Shown: positions 31,790 to 54,897 of the stretch, piece after piece
Layout of the letters: each line of letters starts with the position of its first letter
Position numbering within the stretch: position 1 is the first letter of the stretch
DNA from: Pyrinomonadales bacterium
GTDB lineage: Bacteria; Acidobacteriota; Blastocatellia; Pyrinomonadales; Pyrinomonadaceae
NCBI GenBank assembly: GCA_038237345.1
Contig: JBBRYU010000001.1
Coordinates: 375 to 64,374, forward strand
Length of the DNA: 64,000 nucleotides
Direction: 5' to 3'
Notes under the pieces: model-generated
Databases searched by the model: none
Told to the model about the DNA's origin: nothing
What the model saw: only the letters and a program-made list of their open reading frames with translations
Made by a program: the position numbers and the translations under genes

Positions 31790-32818
31790 ATGCGTCTGAC
31801 CGAGATGGTCGCCTGCGCGGGTTGAGCGGCGAAACTCGCGCCGAGCGATCTCGCCCACGTGCTGGGCGGCTTGCACATTCCAAAGTCTGCCAATCTGCTT
31901 GTCGGCATCGAGACGGCGGACGATGCCGGCGTGTATCTGCTGCGCGACGACCTCGCGCTCGTGCAGACCGTGGACTTCTTTACGCCGATTGTTGACGACC
32001 CCTACGACTACGGCCGCATCGCCGCGCTCAACTCGATCAACGACGTGTGGGCCATGGGCGGCACGCCGATTACCGCGCTCGCTGTCACTTGCTTCCCGAA
32101 AAAAGGTCTCGACTTTGCGATCCTCGGCGACATCATGCGCGGCGGCTTGGACGTGTTGACGGAACACGGCGTCGCCCTCCTCGGCGGGCATAGCGTGGAC
32201 GACCAGCAGATCATGTTCGGCTACGCCGTCACCGGCACGATCCACCCGCAACGGATCATTACTAATCGCGCCGCGCAAGTCGGCGACGTGATCATTTTGA
32301 CGAAGCCCATCGGCACGGGCGTCATCTCGACCGGCATCAAATTCGGCAAGGCGAGTGAGCCGGTAATGCGCGCGTCGCTCGACACGATGCTGCTGGCCGG
32401 GCGTGAGGCGGCGGCGGCGATGCAAGAGTTCGGCGCGCACGCGGCGACTGATGTGACGGGCTTCGCGCTGCTCGGTCATGCGTGGGAGTTAGCGCATGCC
32501 AGCAACGTCACCCTTGAACTTGAGGCGGCGCGCGTGCCGCTCATCAACGGCGCGTTGGCGTTAGCCGCGCAAGGGTTGTTGACGAGTGGCGACAAGACGA
32601 ATCGGCGCTATGTCGGCGACGACGTGCGGTTGGGTGATGAGATCAGCCCGGCCGTAGGCAACCTGCTCTTCGACCCGCAGACGGCCGGCGGCCTTTTGAT
32701 CTCCGTCGCGCCGGAGCGCGCCGACGCACTGCTCGCGCGCCTCAGTGAGCGTTACAAGGACGCAAGTATCATCGGGCGTGCGGTCGCGCGCGGCACGCAT
32801 GCCATCGTAGTCAAATAA
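31790..32818 (+). CDS. selD: selenide, water dikinase with an in-frame UGA (selenocysteine) at 31823-31825
   Basis: AAAGGAGG then ATG at 31790. Reads [30 protein letters not shown] and runs in frame into track ORF 31859-32818 (AIR-synthase-like body DDAGVY...[15 protein letters not shown]). The UGA aligns with the catalytic Cys, and a Lys lies at +3 as in the GCGCK loop of E. coli SelD. Confidence 0.85.
31840..31870 (+). other. candidate SECIS-like stem-loop downstream of the selD UGA
   Basis: GCCG/CGGC plus AGCG/UGCU pairing with a GGG bulge and a 12-nt loop, 17-47 nt after the UGA. Found by hand folding only. Confidence 0.3.
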
Positions 32819-44624: not shown

Positions 44625-45899
44625 TTATCCTTCAGCCGAACAGGCACAGGTGTTGACCTCGCGCACGATCTCGCGCTCGCCGCCGTAGATGTGCGTGGTG
44701 CAGGGCATGCAGGGATCGAAGCTGCGGATGGCGCGGAGCATGTCCACGCCCGTGAAATCCTCCGGGCGCGCGTAGTCTTCGAGGATCGGCGTGTTCAGCA
44801 CGGCCTCTTCGTAGGGGCCGGGGTTGCCGAACGGATCTTTCGGCGAGGCGTTGAAGGTGGACGGCGTGACAATCTGGTAGTTAGTTATTGCGCCCTTATC
44901 TAGCGTCAGGTGGTGCGACAGATAGCCGCGCCCCGCGCCCCAGAAGCCGACGCCGATGCGCTCGCCCATCGGCACCTCGAATTTCGTGCTGACTTTGTCC
45001 TCACCCTTGCGCAAGAGGTCGAACGCCTTCAAGACCATCGTGTAGGCGACCATCAGGTTGTAGCCCATGCAGTAGGCGCGCGCGCGGTTGCGCTCGAAGG
45101 CGTTCCACACCGTGGGAATCTTCCACTCGAAATCCATCTCGCGCAGCATCGTCTTCGGCATGTGAAACTTGAGGCTGTGGCCGGTGGCTTCCATGAACTG
45201 GTTCTTCGGCATCAGCCCGGCGGCGGCGGTCGTCCAGATGCGGGCGTAGGCCCCGGCTTCGACCACCTGCCTGTCCCAGCGCGGCGCGGTGTCCCACGTG
45301 TAGCGATCCTTCCAACTCTCCTTCGACGGCTTCGGCAGCGTCTCTTTATTCCACGGATGATTCGGCGAGAGCGGCGCGCCCGACGGGTCGGTCATAAACC
45401 GCTGTTTGCCGTTTTGGTTCCAGTCTTCGTAATAAGAGTGTTCGACGAACTCTTCGAGACCGAGGTTGAGCTGCTGCAACTTCGTCGTGACGAGTTGGCC
45501 GTCAATGACCGCGCCCGGTGTCGCCCAACGTGCTTCGCCCCACTCGTTGCACCGCGCGTAAGACGCATCGTAAGAGTTCTCGTCGTCCCACATGCCGAGG
45601 TCGATCATGTTTGCCGCCCGCGCGCCGACCTGCTTGTATTCGGGATTGTAGTCGTAGAAGAACTCGGTGAGATCGTCCCATAGCAGGATCATCCGCTTCG
45701 TCCAGTCGATCATCTTCTGGAGCCGCGTGTAGGTCTCGTTGAAGTCCGTGATCGTGACTGTCGAGGACATGCCGCCGGGCACGACCGTCTGCGGGTGCGG
45801 GTACTTGCCGAAAAGCACGGAATAGGCTTCACGCGGTACGCGCGTCATCTTGAGACCATCGAGATACAACTTGCCGGAGAGCGGGTTTAAGCCCTTCAT
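44625..45899 (-). CDS. [NiFe]-hydrogenase large subunit, C-terminal 424-aa part
   Basis: FGKYPHPQTVVPGG region and the C-terminal Ni-binding box RSFDPCMPCTTH. It is in the same frame as 45915-46496, separated only by TAA plus 15 nt. Confidence 0.85.
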   Translation of the reverse strand: MKGLNPLSGKLYLDGLKMTRVPREAYSVLFGKYPHPQTVVPGGMSSTVTITDFNETYTRLQKMIDWTKRMILLWDDLTEFFYDYNPEYKQVGARAANMIDLGMWDDENSYDASYARCNEWGEARWATPGAVIDGQLVTTKLQQLNLGLEEFVEHSYYEDWNQNGKQRFMTDPSGAPLSPNHPWNKETLPKPSKESWKDRYTWDTAPRWDRQVVEAGAYARIWTTAAAGLMPKNQFMEATGHSLKFHMPKTMLREMDFEWKIPTVWNAFERNRARAYCMGYNLMVAYTMVLKAFDLLRKGEDKVSTKFEVPMGERIGVGFWGAGRGYLSHHLTLDKGAITNYQIVTPSTFNASPKDPFGNPGPYEEAVLNTPILEDYARPEDFTGVDMLRAIRSFDPCMPCTTHIYGGEREIVREVNTCACSAEG

Positions 45900-45914
45900 G
45901 ATGTCACCGATAGT

Positions 45915-46496
45915 TTAGAACTGATGAACCTCGGCGTTCGCTGCTTCCGTCACCTTCGCCTTCTCCCACATCGCCGGGGTGGTCGCTTCGACGACGACCT
46001 GCGAGTAGTCCGGGCCGGCGAGCAGGAAGAGATGGAGCGGGTGGTCGTACAGAAAATCGAGCGCGAGCGCGAGATTGCGCAGCACCGTACCGAGCGGCGG
46101 CGGCGAAATCCCGAAGGCCATCTCGATGGCCTCGCAAGCGGCGGTCGAGTGGACGCCGCCGCAGACGCCGCAGGCGCGACTCGAAATATAGATGGCGTCC
46201 CGCGGGTCGCGCCCCTTCAGGATCACTTCGTAGCCGCGAAAGATGGTCGCAATCGAGTTGGCGTCGAGGAACTTGCGCTCCTGCAAATCGGCCACGGCGT
46301 GGAACGAGAGCGCGCCCGCCACGCGCGTCACCGGCGAGATGCTGACATCCTTGATGTGCCCGTTGCGCGCGAGCAGTTCTTCTAGCTTGTCACGCTTGAT
46401 CTCACGCGGTTTGTAGGCGTAAGGGTCAACCATCCCGCCTTTGAGGTGCGCGTTACCCTGCGCGTCGAATTCAACTGGAAGATTCTTGAAGCACAT
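45915..46496 (-). CDS. [NiFe]-hydrogenase large subunit, N-terminal 193-aa part, ending at an in-frame TAA (45917-45915)
   Basis: Contains the L1 box SSRACGVCGGVH. The N-terminal motif reads SPVTRVAGAL instead of the usual PxTRxEGH. Confidence 0.85.
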   Translation of the reverse strand: MCFKNLPVEFDAQGNAHLKGGMVDPYAYKPREIKRDKLEELLARNGHIKDVSISPVTRVAGALSFHAVADLQERKFLDANSIATIFRGYEVILKGRDPRDAIYISSRACGVCGGVHSTAACEAIEMAFGISPPPLGTVLRNLALALDFLYDHPLHLFLLAGPDYSQVVVEATTPAMWEKAKVTEAANAEVHQF

Positions 46497-49630: not shown

Positions 49631-50428
49631 CTATTTCCCTCCTGCTTCAACGGCGTTGCTTGCGAATTCATGTAGGAGAAAATCTGCCACGCGCGACAGC
49701 TCTGCGACGATGGGAGCAGTCACATCGTAATCAATCACCGCGCGCCCCGTCCTGTCAGCCTCGGTTACGTTCTCATCGAAAGGAATGCCAGCTATTAGTT
49801 GTAAATCGTGCTTACGGCAATATGCCCGGACGGCTTCCTCGTCCTGCGGACTGCGGAGTTTGTTGCCGATGCCGTAGATGCGCTTTAGCCCTAGTTCGCG
49901 CGCGAGCGGCACAGTTCGTCCGGCGGTCTCCATCGAACGATAGTAAGGCTCAAGGACGACGAGCAGCGCGTCAACGTATCTGAGCGTGCCCCGGCTCAGA
50001 TGTTCGATAGAAGCCTCCATGTCCATCACGGTCACGCTCTCTGTACTGTTGACGATCTCACCGACGAGGCTGCGCACGGCAGCGTGTGCGCCGCAGAGTC
50101 AACCCGCGCCCGCGTGATCGACGCGCGTGCCGACCAGCACCGTCACACCGTCGGGGGCCTTCAGCCCGTACTGGCTGATGATCTCGGCCACCGGTCTCGT
50201 CAGCACATGTCGGGTCGCGCCCGTCTCGTCCTCGCGCCGCTCGACGATGCTGCGCGGTATTGACTCGATCTCCACGCCGGGGCCGACGCCCAGAGCCTGT
50301 AAGAGATTAGGATTCGGGTCGCCGTCAATCGCGAGCACGGGCAGACCGCGCCGGGCCAACAGGCGTGTGAGCGTCGCCGAGATGGTAGTTTTGCCGGAAC
50401 CGCCTTTACCACTGACCGCAATCTTCAT
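49631..50428 (-). CDS. CooC-type (MinD/ParA superfamily) nickel-insertion ATPase with an in-frame UGA at 50101-50099
   Basis: Track ORFs 50099-50428 and 49631-50077 share one continuous frame. The joined product is 265 aa: MKIAVSGKGGSGKTT..., AIDGDPNPNL, GTRVDHAGAG-UGA-LCGAHAAVRSLV, VMDMEASIEHLSRGT. The UGA replaces the first Cys of the CooC CxC motif. Confidence 0.75.
50069..50094 (-). other. candidate SECIS-like hairpin after the CooC UGA
   Basis: mRNA GCGCAC-ACGCUGCC-GUGCGC (6 perfect bp, 8-nt loop), extended by 2 bp across one mismatch. The perfect stem begins 7 nt after the UGA. Found by hand folding only. Confidence 0.35.
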
Positions 50429-53088: not shown

Positions 53089-53502
53089 ATGAAGAACACG
53101 GCGGACAGCATAACCAGCAGCGAACTGGCGAAACGTAGCGCGGTGAATTTGGAAACCATTCGTTACTACGAACGGCAAGGGTTGCTGCCAAAGCCGCCGC
53201 GCTCGGCAGCAGGTTATCGGTTATTTTCGTTAGCCGAGGTGCGGCGCGTTCGTTTCATCAAGCGGGCACAGGAACTGGGCTTCTCGTTGAAAGAGATCAA
53301 AGAGTTGCTTGCCCTGCGCGTCACACCCGGCACGACCAGCGCGGACGTGCGCAAACGGGCAGAAGCCAAGATTGCCGACATCGAGGAGAAAGTACAGACC
53401 CTGCGGGCCATGCAGCAGGCTTTGACCCGATTGACCGCCACTTGCTGCGGCGACGGAGCGATCAGTGAATGTCCGATTCTTGAAAGTCTAAACGTAGAGT
53501 AA
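53089..53502 (+). CDS. MerR-family heavy-metal-responsive transcriptional regulator
   Basis: VNLETIRYYERQGLL, RVRFIKRAQELGFSLKEIKELL and a C-terminal CCGDGAISECPILESL. The position matching the third Hg ligand of MerR (the THC box) reads TTS. Confidence 0.85.
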   Translation: MKNTADSITSSELAKRSAVNLETIRYYERQGLLPKPPRSAAGYRLFSLAEVRRVRFIKRAQELGFSLKEIKELLALRVTPGTTSADVRKRAEAKIADIEEKVQTLRAMQQALTRLTATCCGDGAISECPILESLNVE

Positions 53503-53514
53503 GGAGAACATGTA

Positions 53515-53790
53515 ATGGCTACTAATCAGAAACGTAAAATCGAAGTCTTTAGTGCCGGCTGTGCGGCGTGCGAGGAGACCGTTAAACTGGTCAATCAGAT
53601 CGCCTGCGAGTCGTGCGAGGTGGAAGTCCTGGACATGCGCCGGGATGATGTGGCGGCGAGAGCCAAGCAGTACGGCATACGCACTGTCCCGGCCGTGGTC
53701 ATTGACGGGAAACTGGCCGATTGCTGCGCCGGTCGGGGCGCGGAGGAAGCTACGCTCAGAGCCGGCGGTCTGGGCGTGCGGCTGTCTTAG
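53515..53790 (+). CDS. small thioredoxin-fold protein (Thioredoxin_3-like)
   Basis: KIEVFSAGCAACEETVKLV (CxxC) ... YGIRTVPAVVIDGKL. Confidence 0.75.
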   Translation: MATNQKRKIEVFSAGCAACEETVKLVNQIACESCEVEVLDMRRDDVAARAKQYGIRTVPAVVIDGKLADCCAGRGAEEATLRAGGLGVRLS

Positions 53791-54504
53791 ATGAATCCGT
53801 TTGATTACATTGAGAGCGTGTCGGCTTCGGTCGCGCAGTACCCGTTCATCGCGCTGCTCGTCGCGGCCGTGGGTGGCGCGCTCTCGACCAGCACTTGACC
53901 CTGCACGTTCCCTGCGGGCGTAGGGGTCATCAGCTATGTCGGCGCGCAGGTTGAGGGCGCACCGGAGGAGCGACGGCGACGGCGGGGTATGCTGATCTCC
54001 TTCGCCTTCTTCTTCGGTGTTGTGCTCAGTCTGCTCGTGCTCGGCACGGCCGCCGCCTTGCTCGGTCGCTTGCTCGCACGCTGGAGCGCGGCCTTTGCCG
54101 TCGGGACAGCCGTGTTCTCGTTGGCAGCGGGATTGATCGCGATTTGCGGCCCGGCCGTGCGCCGCCGCTTCCCCGACCCGGAAGTCGGCAAACGCGGCGG
54201 CATCATCGGCGCGTTCCTGTACGGCCTCTGTTACAGCGTGGCCACCATCATCACGTCCGCCGGGCCTCTGTTGCTGTTGCTCACGGTTGCCGCCGCCATC
54301 GGCCGGCCGGCGTATGGCGCGGCACTCTCGCTCTCGTATGCTATCGGGCGCGGCGTGCCGTTTCTGCTGTTGGGCTTATTTGCCGGCGCGGTGGGCGCGG
54401 GGCTCGCGCGCATCGGGCGTGCGCGGCGTATCGCTGAGATTGTGAGCGGGGTCGCGCTCGTGGTACTGGCCATTTACTTCGCGCGCCTGGCGCAAATGCT
54501 ATGA
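53791..54504 (+). CDS. CcdA/DsbD-family membrane protein with an in-frame UGA at 53896-53898
   Basis: ATG 53791 directly abuts the upstream stop. Reads MNPFDYIESVSASVAQYPFIALLVAAVGGALSTST-UGA-PCTFPAGVGVISYV... and continues in frame (66 codons) into track ORF 53989-54504. The PCxxP box of TM1 is encoded upstream of the track ORF start. Confidence 0.7.
53909..53926 (+). other. candidate SECIS-like hairpin after the CcdA-like UGA
   Basis: UCCCUGC-GGGC-GUAGGGG: 7 bp including 2 G-U pairs, with an apical loop that starts GG and lies 20-23 nt after the U of UGA. Found by hand folding only. Confidence 0.4.
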
Positions 54505-54513
54505 CTGCCGGCG

Positions 54514-54897
54514 CTAACTTTTAACGCTCGCCTTATAACCCATATTCACGATGACCTGCACGAGCTTCTCTCGTGTAGTGCGCCCCGGATCATATTCGAC
54601 GACCGCTTCTTTACGCTCGTAACTCACGTCGACCGTGATTACACCTGCGGTGCGCTTTAACATGGCCTTGATGCCGGTGGCGCAACTGTCGCAATGCATC
54701 CCTTCTATCGCCAACAGCACGCGCTCGGACTGTGTCTCAGCCTTGGGCGCAGCCACAACTAAGGCGTGCGGTGCGCGCATCATCAACTCCGCAGCGCCGG
54801 CCATGACGAACGCGCTCACGGCGAGAGTGAGCATAGCGCGCCACGCGCCCGGCTTGATTGTGCGCTCAATACTTTTTCCCAGCTCTAACATTATCAA
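54514..54897 (-). CDS. heavy-metal-associated (HMA, MerP/CopZ-like) domain protein with an N-terminal hydrophobic segment
   Basis: VLLAIEGMHCDSCATGIKAMLKRTAGVITVDVSYERKEAVVEYD. Confidence 0.75.
   Translation of the reverse strand: MIMLELGKSIERTIKPGAWRAMLTLAVSAFVMAGAAELMMRAPHALVVAAPKAETQSERVLLAIEGMHCDSCATGIKAMLKRTAGVITVDVSYERKEAVVEYDPGRTTREKLVQVIVNMGYKASVKS

Follow-up and report, generated by a model that had tools for sequence, protein, structure and literature searches.

CcdA, the electron transporter represented by the structure of the T. thermophilus protein (PDB 5VKV; PF02683), consists of six transmembrane (TM) helices, of which TM1 and TM4 are unwound at the positions of the two motifs that contribute the Cys residues of its catalytic disulfide, and its context is cytochrome c maturation. 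In the P1B-type ATPases, a C-P-C motif in an unwound TM helix forms an intramembrane soft-metal site. MerE and MerT of the Tn21 mer operon have two vicinal Cys residues midway along their first TM helix and are partnered with the periplasmic HMA protein MerP and a MerR-family regulator; the TM1 Cys pair of MerE is experimentally required for transport of Hg(II) and CH3Hg(I) (PMC5715351). Membrane metal-transporter selenoproteins have also been catalogued, namely a MerT-like family and the SO_0444 family (Cu/Zn efflux, UxC), in which selenocysteine (Sec, U) is present in short metal-ligand motifs (PMC13188914). Among the catalogued selenoproteins, TsoB (rhodanese/DsbD fusion-like, NF045694) alone has a DsbD-type TM domain; it is a fusion of 572 profile positions with two Sec residues in UxxxxU and is listed among the rhodanese-like proteins. 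Here we describe a gene of the CcdA fold from a Pyrinomonadales bacterium, in which an in-frame UGA, predicted to be read as Sec, places a U-P-C motif in the middle of TM1.

The gene is located in a stretch of 64,000 nt, referred to as the window, which spans positions 375 to 64,374 of the forward strand of contig JBBRYU010000001.1 (assembly GCA_038237345.1; GTDB Acidobacteriota; Blastocatellia; Pyrinomonadales; Pyrinomonadaceae). All coordinates are window positions and are collected in Table 1. The ATG of the gene at 53791 follows immediately after the TAG stop (53788-53790) of an open reading frame (ORF) for a thioredoxin-fold protein, and from this ATG a frame of 238 codons runs to a TGA stop at 54502-54504, with the TGA at 53896-53898 as the sole interruption. 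The translation around the interrupting codon is MNPFDYIESVSASVAQYPFIALLVAAVGGALSTST-U-PCTFPAGVG..., so that U36, P37 and C38 lie in the middle of TM1, while the mechanically called ORF begins at Met67 (53989) and is 171 aa in length. The joined protein of 237 aa matches Pfam DsbD_TM over profile positions 4-215 with 42.8 bits (cut-off 27.1), as compared to positions 46-215 only, with 27.9 bits, for the short ORF starting from Met67. The match is extended by joining the two parts and therefore the 66 upstream codons supply the missing first helix together with its PCxxP box. tblastn alignments of residues 1-237 run through the UGA in about 30 genome loci, and 53791-54504 constitutes one complete gene. 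This arrangement had been proposed earlier from the sequence alone (hereafter the sequence-only reading), with an ATG abutting the preceding stop, 66 in-frame codons encoding the missing TM1 and PCxxP box, and a lone TGA two residues ahead of the conserved Cys; the frame bears it out, and the gain of the region of profile positions 4-45 agrees with it.

A homologue search against 5.8 billion proteins returned two populations. Hits covering about 100% of the query are 233-254 aa in length and at most 66% identical, and all of them have Cys in the U column. Hits that are at least 70% identical are all just 160-195 aa long and cover 68-82% of the query, a pattern to be expected from gene callers when an ORF is interrupted by a conserved in-frame stop. 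The full-length relatives in the alignment all read S-T-S-T-C-P-C-T-L-P at the motif, and C36, P37, C38, T39 and P41 are invariant in 44 full-length homologues. Met67 is unconserved and the truncated entries begin at many different codons. Both expectations that had been attached to the original proposal, namely that relatives possess TM1 rather than starting at the equivalent of Met67 and that Cys occupies the column of the UGA, hold throughout these 44 sequences.

The codon itself was followed in a scan of one genome per species, which gave 48 loci, and in an independent scan of metagenomes. Codon 36 is TGA in 31 of the genome loci and TGC or TGT in 7 (all read directly), and it is TGA in 56, TGC in 8 and TGT in 5 of the metagenome loci. 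The 31 TGA genome loci come from Pyrinomonadaceae, Blastocatellia, Thermoanaerobaculia and other Acidobacteriota, from many Gemmatimonadota and from one bin labelled Clostridia; the 7 TGC/TGT loci belong to a Nocardioides and to a Gemmatimonadota sub-clade. The 35 codons upstream of the UGA are free of stops in all 31 loci, as against 30 and 22 loci with stops in the other two frames. Differences between pairs of sequences in this upstream part peak at codon position 3 (0.59 vs 0.32 at position 1 and 0.15 at position 2). Judged from this comparison of loci, the in-frame UGA is conserved far beyond chance. The gene, like many others in the window, itself terminates with TGA and therefore UGA is not globally reassigned. 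We consider it highly likely that the UGA at 53896-53898 is decoded as Sec (U36) with the help of a bacterial Sec insertion sequence (SECIS) hairpin.

The candidate for this hairpin is the 7-bp stem with a GG-starting tetraloop, 13-30 nt after the U of the UGA, that was noticed in the sequence-only reading; it could be located at 53909-53926, with the loop GGGC. It starts 10 nt past the codon, its apical loop lies 17 nt past the codon and its free energy (dG) is -9.7 kcal/mol. From an alignment of 32 Sec-form sequences (55 nt from the UGA; 31 distinct sequences), RNAalifold predicts a single helix pairing columns 14-20 with columns 25-31, which is exactly this hairpin, and all 217 cells hold standard pairs (100% paired). 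Pair 18-27 is U-A in 26, C-G in 3 and G-C in 2 of the genome Sec-forms. Since columns 18 and 27 are synonymous third positions of a Pro (CCN) and a Val (GUN) codon, protein constraint cannot explain these changes. Shifting the 3' arm by 1-3 nt reduces the pairing to 38-71%. In 40 further distinct Sec-form sequences from metagenomes, the six core pairs (columns 15-20 with 25-30) are again 100% paired, with one U-A added at pair 15-30, and with UA:33, CG:3 and GC:4 at pair 18-27 and GU:36, GC:2 and AU:2 at pair 19-26. The loops of the Sec-forms are GGGC, AGGU, AGGC, GGGU or GGUC, always N-G-[G/U]-N. Cys-form loci are just 67-71% paired at the same site, and the full stem is kept by 1 of 12 distinct metagenome and 2 of 6 distinct genome Cys-form sequences.

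The published model of the bacterial SECIS (bSECIS) specifies a loop of 3-9 nt, a stem of 4-16 bp, a G in the first two loop positions, a distance of 16-37 nt from the UGA to the loop and a dG of at most -7.5 kcal/mol (PMC13188914). The present hairpin lies within all of these limits (loop 4 nt, stem 7 bp, G at loop positions 1-3, spacing 17 nt, -9.7 kcal/mol). To the stem and loop noticed earlier, the comparison adds conservation with covariation. A scan of the whole window with Rfam returned no curated SECIS family. An alternative minimum-free-energy fold, in which the UGA itself is paired, was considered and rejected; on the alignment it is 81.9% paired, without covariation and not above shuffles.

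Two other UGAs of the window fall at functional Cys positions. The selD gene contains a UGA (31823-31825) at the known Sec/Cys site of selenophosphate synthetase, and the region after it shows no clear SECIS by single-sequence folding. Such a UGA-containing selD is evidence, as far as gene content can tell, that the genome decodes Sec. In a gene for a CooC-like P-loop ATPase, the UGA at 50099-50101 falls in the column of the first Cys of the C-x-C motif by which CooC1 (PDB 3KJE) binds metal, giving U-L-C, and a 5-bp hairpin with the loop CGUGC is present 20 nt after it. CooC has 0 occurrences in the text of a 2026 review of selenoproteins (PMC13188914), and the U-L-C protein may be another uncatalogued selenoprotein. 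The sequence-only reading had counted the UGA studied here as the third of the window at a redox or metal Cys position, and the other two are indeed real. An in-frame stop of another kind, a TAA at 45915-45917 between AEVHQF and TIGDIMKG, is seen in a [NiFe]-hydrogenase large-subunit-like gene (44625-46496, minus strand). The C-terminal motif of this gene is DPCMPC, with Cys rather than Sec. The gene could be split or no longer functional, as a pseudogene, or the stop could stem from an error in sequencing.

Comparison of the family profile with the PDB gave a single sequence match, CcdA of T. thermophilus (5VKV). In TM1, 'LSPCVLP' of 5VKV is aligned with 'tCPCtlP' of the family, and therefore C38 is the canonical active-site Cys, present in the same PCxxP box, while CcdA has Ser in the column of U/C36, two residues upstream. 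For TM4, the alignment sets Ser156 of the family's 'TTSaGP' against the Cys in 'TPCIGP' of 5VKV, and this Ser is invariant in 45 sequences. Of the two catalytic Cys residues that define the CcdA electron transporter, the one in TM1 is thus present and the one in TM4 is replaced by an invariant Ser, and therefore the protein cannot work as a textbook CcdA. An AlphaFold model, made on a 65%-identical Cys-form (P0003) and not on the window protein, is all-helical with TM1 broken at 36-38 and TM4 at 156 (pLDDT 68, pTM 0.58), and 5VKV is its top and only convincing match in Foldseek (probability 1.00, TM-score 0.44-0.46). Clusters of K/R in loops 1, 3 and 5 (RRRRR, RRR..K.R and R.R.RR) and an acidic N-terminus are read from the sequence and suggest an N-out, C-out topology of the joined 237 aa, with U36 approximately in the middle of TM1, in agreement with the proposal of a U-P-C pair inside the membrane. 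The protein is a six-helix member of the CcdA/DsbD_TM fold and belongs to a separate CPC/UPC subfamily without the TM4 Cys. Its earlier description as CcdA/DsbD-like therefore stands for the fold and not for a canonical CcdA.

The motif and the partners of the protein resemble those of the metal transporters introduced above. 'STCPCTLP' of the family and 'LTCPCHLP' of TM1 in MerE share T-C-P-C-x-L-P, and in the window protein Sec replaces the first Cys of the pair. Unlike MerE and MerT, which have two or three TM helices, the protein has six; it has no match to Pfam MerE (PF05052) or MerT (PF02411), and hhalign aligns it with MerE over 16 columns at 53% probability. The replacement of Cys by Sec in a metal-ligand motif of a membrane transporter is shared with the MerT-like and SO_0444 selenoproteins, and in the latter also the U-x-C spacing, but these are unrelated families and an NCBIfam scan of the UPC protein returned none of their models. 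The sole NCBIfam match is TsoB, with 35.6 bits against a cut-off of 805 bits; only its TM-domain part (profile positions 175-392) is matched and the UPC protein lacks a rhodanese domain. The P1B-type ATPases share the C-P-C motif and are genetically linked to the UPC/CPC family in most of the related loci, but they have another fold, and the UPC protein lacks the ATPase domains. tblastn of the UPC protein against 72,556 plasmids gave no match. 'CcdA-type mercury transporters' of actinobacteria have been tabulated (PMC12195606) and are possible members of the UPC/CPC family.

Table 1. Positions of the UPC gene, its key elements, its neighbours and the other UGA-containing genes in the window
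Feature	Position	Strand	Basis
selD (selenophosphate synthetase) with its own UGA	31790-32818	+	365 bits to TIGR00476, residues 2-310
CooC-like P-loop ATPase with in-frame UGA	49631-50428	-	Alignment to CooC1 (PDB 3KJE)
MerR-family metal-sensing regulator, first gene of the cluster	53089-53502	+	Pfam MerR_1, MerR-DNA-bind
Small cytoplasmic thioredoxin-fold protein with three Cys pairs	53515-53790	+	Pfam Thioredoxin_3, 41.4 bits
Predicted CcdA/DsbD_TM-fold selenoprotein, complete gene, 237 aa	53791-54504	+	Frame, Pfam, tblastn across the UGA
UGA predicted to be read as Sec (U36)	53896-53898	+	Cys column in homologues; TGA recurrence
Pro37-Cys38 codons (PCxxP box); Cys38 corresponds to the active-site Cys in TM1 of canonical CcdA	53899-53904	+	Profile alignment to 5VKV
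Predicted bacterial SECIS hairpin, 7-bp stem, tetraloop GGGC at 53916-53919	53909-53926	+	RNAalifold, covariation, bSECIS constraints
Ser156 codon, at the second (TM4) redox Cys position of canonical CcdA	54256-54258	+	5VKV alignment; invariant
Convergent N-anchored or exported HMA (MerP/CopZ-like) protein, GMHCDSC	54514-54897	-	Pfam HMA, 55 bits

By the domains and motifs of its neighbours, the gene is part of a predicted MerR-regulated soft-metal module. Single-linkage clustering of the neighbouring ORFs merged MerR, HMA and ATPase proteins into one cluster, and the context drawn from this clustering is qualitative. The best NCBIfam models of the MerR-family regulator are MerR (135 bits), CueR (125) and ZntR (121), which score similarly and all below their cut-offs and so point to no one metal. 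Orthologues resembling this regulator (45-79% identity) precede the CcdA-like gene at roughly a dozen of the related loci, and many other related loci have just more distant MerR-family genes nearby. The thioredoxin-fold protein, whose sequence has no evident signal peptide, carries the Cys pairs C16-A-A-C19, C30-E-S-C33 and C69-C70, largely conserved in its orthologues, and also matches the NCBIfam MTH895/ArsE-type model below its cut-off. The three pairs exceed the needs of a simple redox thioredoxin, which suggests a putative role in metal binding. Its gene recurs in about 9 of about 45 related loci, and its family, PF13192, includes two catalogued selenoprotein families (CxU and UxC).

The most constant neighbour is the HMA gene, found immediately downstream on the opposite strand in 24 genome loci. 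The N-terminus of its product is signal-peptide-like or anchor-like, several copies have classical signal peptides, and the best NCBIfam models are UxxU metal-binding (seleno)protein, MerTP and MerP. In many related loci, a P1B-ATPase of 800-1100 aa is encoded directly upstream of the CcdA-like gene. These ATPases carry G-Y-P-C-A-(L/V)-G, not CPC, CPH or SPC, in the helix before DKTGT (loci L002, L013, L015, L016, L018, L024, L030, L031, L034, L041 and L042). In one group of them FN and M-A-A-S-V replace the YN and MxxSS motifs of the Cu(I) type, and one group bears an extra C-terminal HMA domain. These Y-P-C enzymes may form an unusual subgroup with a functional link to the CPC/UPC membrane protein.

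Further neighbours in the related loci are Csp1-like four-helix Cys-rich storage proteins, CusA-like RND pumps and ArsR/ArsC-like genes, and a MerA-like flavoprotein was seen at just two loci, one of them L030. Several loci (L005:5665-5901, L015:5301-5471, L011:5705-5929 and L008:1-147) also encode, between the ATPase and the CcdA-like protein, a small peptide rich in Cys (..YRCPDxxCGCEIEVxKGA...PRCCCGKEMxK..); it has no match in NCBIfam and may be metallothionein-like. Distant CPC-type relatives from Alphaproteobacteria and Acidobacteriales (40% identity) keep the order MerR - HMA - CcdA-like - ATPase.

As the best overall explanation we lean, by a modest measure, towards a selenoprotein gene of the CcdA fold with a soft-metal-site function. 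By analogy with the Mer proteins, there is an even chance that U36 and C38 form an intramembrane site for binding or translocation of a soft metal. In such a scheme, U36, C38 and possibly S156 would make up an intramembrane site for a thiophilic ion such as Hg(II) or Cu(I)/Ag(I), which would be received through ligand exchange from the CxxC of the periplasmic HMA protein and handed across the membrane to cytoplasmic thiol proteins, either the thioredoxin-like protein or the HMA domains of an ATPase. A selenolate could make the first ligand-exchange step quicker and tighter. The scheme would parallel the path from MerP to MerT/MerE, in which transport requires the Cys pair midway along TM1. We favour a metal site because the canonical disulfide partner is gone while the vicinal C/U-P-C is invariant, because MerE shows the same T-C-P-C-x-L-P pattern midway along its first TM helix, and because the partners mirror MerR and MerP. 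It is favoured further because the catalogued membrane-transporter selenoproteins include MerT-like and U-x-C Cu/Zn efflux families, and because the other U-x-C of the window, in the CooC-like protein, replaces a metal-binding C-x-C, in this case a Ni-binding one.

Several observations weigh against the proposal of a selenoprotein with a soft-metal site. Folding of the single sequence (50-65 nt after the UGA) gives a different minimum-free-energy fold with insignificant z-scores, and therefore the SECIS assignment rests on comparative evidence. ARAGORN and Rfam found tRNA-Glu alone and no tRNA-Sec in the 64-kb window, and NCBIfam scans of the ORFs around selD found no selA or selB in it. The confidence of the structure model is moderate. 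The likeness to MerE is a local one, over the few columns given above, and homology is not demonstrated. Neither MerA nor a P1B-ATPase is adjacent in the window, and an importer of a toxic metal would therefore be without an obvious sink here. To our knowledge, the CcdA fold is known solely as an electron transporter and not as a metal transporter. The context of HMA and thioredoxin-like proteins fits a redox relay equally well.

Such a relay would involve the same selenoprotein, with a reversible U36-C38 selenenylsulfide in TM1 in place of the TM1-TM4 disulfide of canonical CcdA. Reducing equivalents would pass from a cytoplasmic thioredoxin, either the adjacent thioredoxin-like protein or a general one, to the exported HMA protein, whose CxxC would thereby stay reduced, and so competent for metal binding, despite the oxidising periplasm; this would be a part in metal tolerance of the DsbD/ScsB type. 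Copper tolerance is aided by DsbD and ScsB, and Mia40 provides an example of redox-active C-P-C disulfides. The DsbD_TM threshold is passed, the only structural relative is the electron transporter CcdA, Cys38 is its canonical redox Cys, a thioredoxin-fold CxxC protein is translationally coupled upstream, and the partner found most consistently, the HMA protein, is exported and carries a CxxC; moreover, most bacterial selenoproteins are thiol-oxidoreductase-like with Sec at the redox Cys (PMC13188914). Against this stand the invariant Ser in place of the second catalytic Cys, the thioredoxin-like gene being confined to about a fifth of the loci, and neighbourhoods of related loci in which no periplasmic acceptor of the TlpA/ResA type was seen. 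The genes tightly linked to the family are those of P1B-ATPases and metal storage, not those of cytochrome or disulfide pathways, and CPC in the middle of a helix is the classic metal-binding motif of MerE and the P1B-ATPases. We regard the redox relay as possible, though rather unlikely.

The remaining explanations would do away with Sec altogether. Were translation to end at the UGA, the locus would have to be explained as a pseudogene, as a fault of assembly or sequencing, or as two products, a 35-aa peptide and the 171-aa ORF from 53989, in keeping with gene callers and public records, which annotate the downstream part only, and with the absence of the remaining Sec machinery from the scans of the window. 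This is very improbable, as TGA occupies the identical codon in 87 independent loci, the 35 codons before it evolve as coding sequence, relatives have an invariant Cys in that column, and a hairpin with covariation follows. The putative start at Met67 is unconserved, with truncated annotations (160-195 aa) starting at many codons, and loss of TM1 would deprive the fold of its only conserved Cys. Three in-frame UGAs in one 64-kb window might call to mind a variant genetic code with UGA as Trp or Gly, which we consider the least probable account of all and close to negligible. The UPC gene itself ends in TGA, all three UGAs align with functional Cys and not with Trp or Gly, and both SECIS and selD are present. 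The GC content of the window is 62%, and the UGA-reassigned lineages known to us are low in GC.

The protein is very probably a real selenoprotein, and its family is missing from the catalogue of 2026. The table of prokaryotic selenoprotein families in the review of May 2026 (PMC13188914) has no entry for PF02683 or CcdA, with TsoB as its only DsbD-related item, and literature searches on CcdA/DsbD selenoproteins and on CcdA in mer operons found no description of the UPC/CPC family. Public records of the Sec-forms are N-truncated to 148-195 aa and named 'thiol:disulfide interchange protein' or 'cytochrome c-type biogenesis protein' (for example MBA3356087.1, 191 aa, from Pyrinomonadaceae), which is a systematic mis-annotation. 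The decoding mechanism and the logic of Cys-to-Sec replacement are standard; what is new is the family and the uncharacterised CcdA subfamily behind it.

In a crude neighbour-joining tree without support values, rooted on the distant Cys-forms, the Cys-forms of Gemmatimonadota and Nocardioides are nested inside the Sec-forms, which suggests a single Cys-to-Sec origin followed by Sec-to-Cys reversions. Two Cys-form Gemmatimonadota loci (L034:6119-6136 and L039:6119-6136) retain a perfect 7-bp hairpin of -11.6 kcal/mol at the SECIS position, with the loops CAGC (L034) and GAGC (L039), which lack the G[G/U] dinucleotide present in every Sec-form loop. Tentatively, a reversion from Sec to Cys may have left a fossil SECIS in these two loci.

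It is conceivable, though somewhat short of an even prospect, that a large clade of soil bacteria has put the CcdA fold to a new use, with both reactive chalcogens gathered on one helix (C/U-P-C) and the TM4 Cys discarded, to serve either as a metal translocator or as a selenenylsulfide relay. The former would make it the first metal-translocating member of the CcdA fold, possibly acting as a Cys-donating partner of the co-encoded Y-P-C P1B-ATPases, in which the first Cys of CPC is lost. The latter would be a single-helix selenenylsulfide relay that reduces a periplasmic metallochaperone. In either case, an intramembrane Sec would be doing chemistry not yet described for the CcdA fold.

The locus adds a widespread selenoprotein family of about 87 loci, the genome loci of which are mostly from Acidobacteriota and Gemmatimonadota, two dominant soil phyla, and its annotation can now be corrected and a family model built. 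A Sec in the middle of a TM helix, at the active-site box of a structurally solved fold, would be a tractable place to compare Se with S in a membrane metal or redox site. The tight linkage of a CPC-type CcdA subfamily lacking the TM4 Cys to unusual Y-P-C P1B-ATPases and exported HMA proteins speaks for a soft-metal module not yet characterised, and the family probably handles toxic soft metals in soil bacteria. Considered alongside the CooC-like protein with its U-x-C and the selD gene with its UGA, it suggests that the use of selenium for metal ligation in this lineage is under-appreciated.

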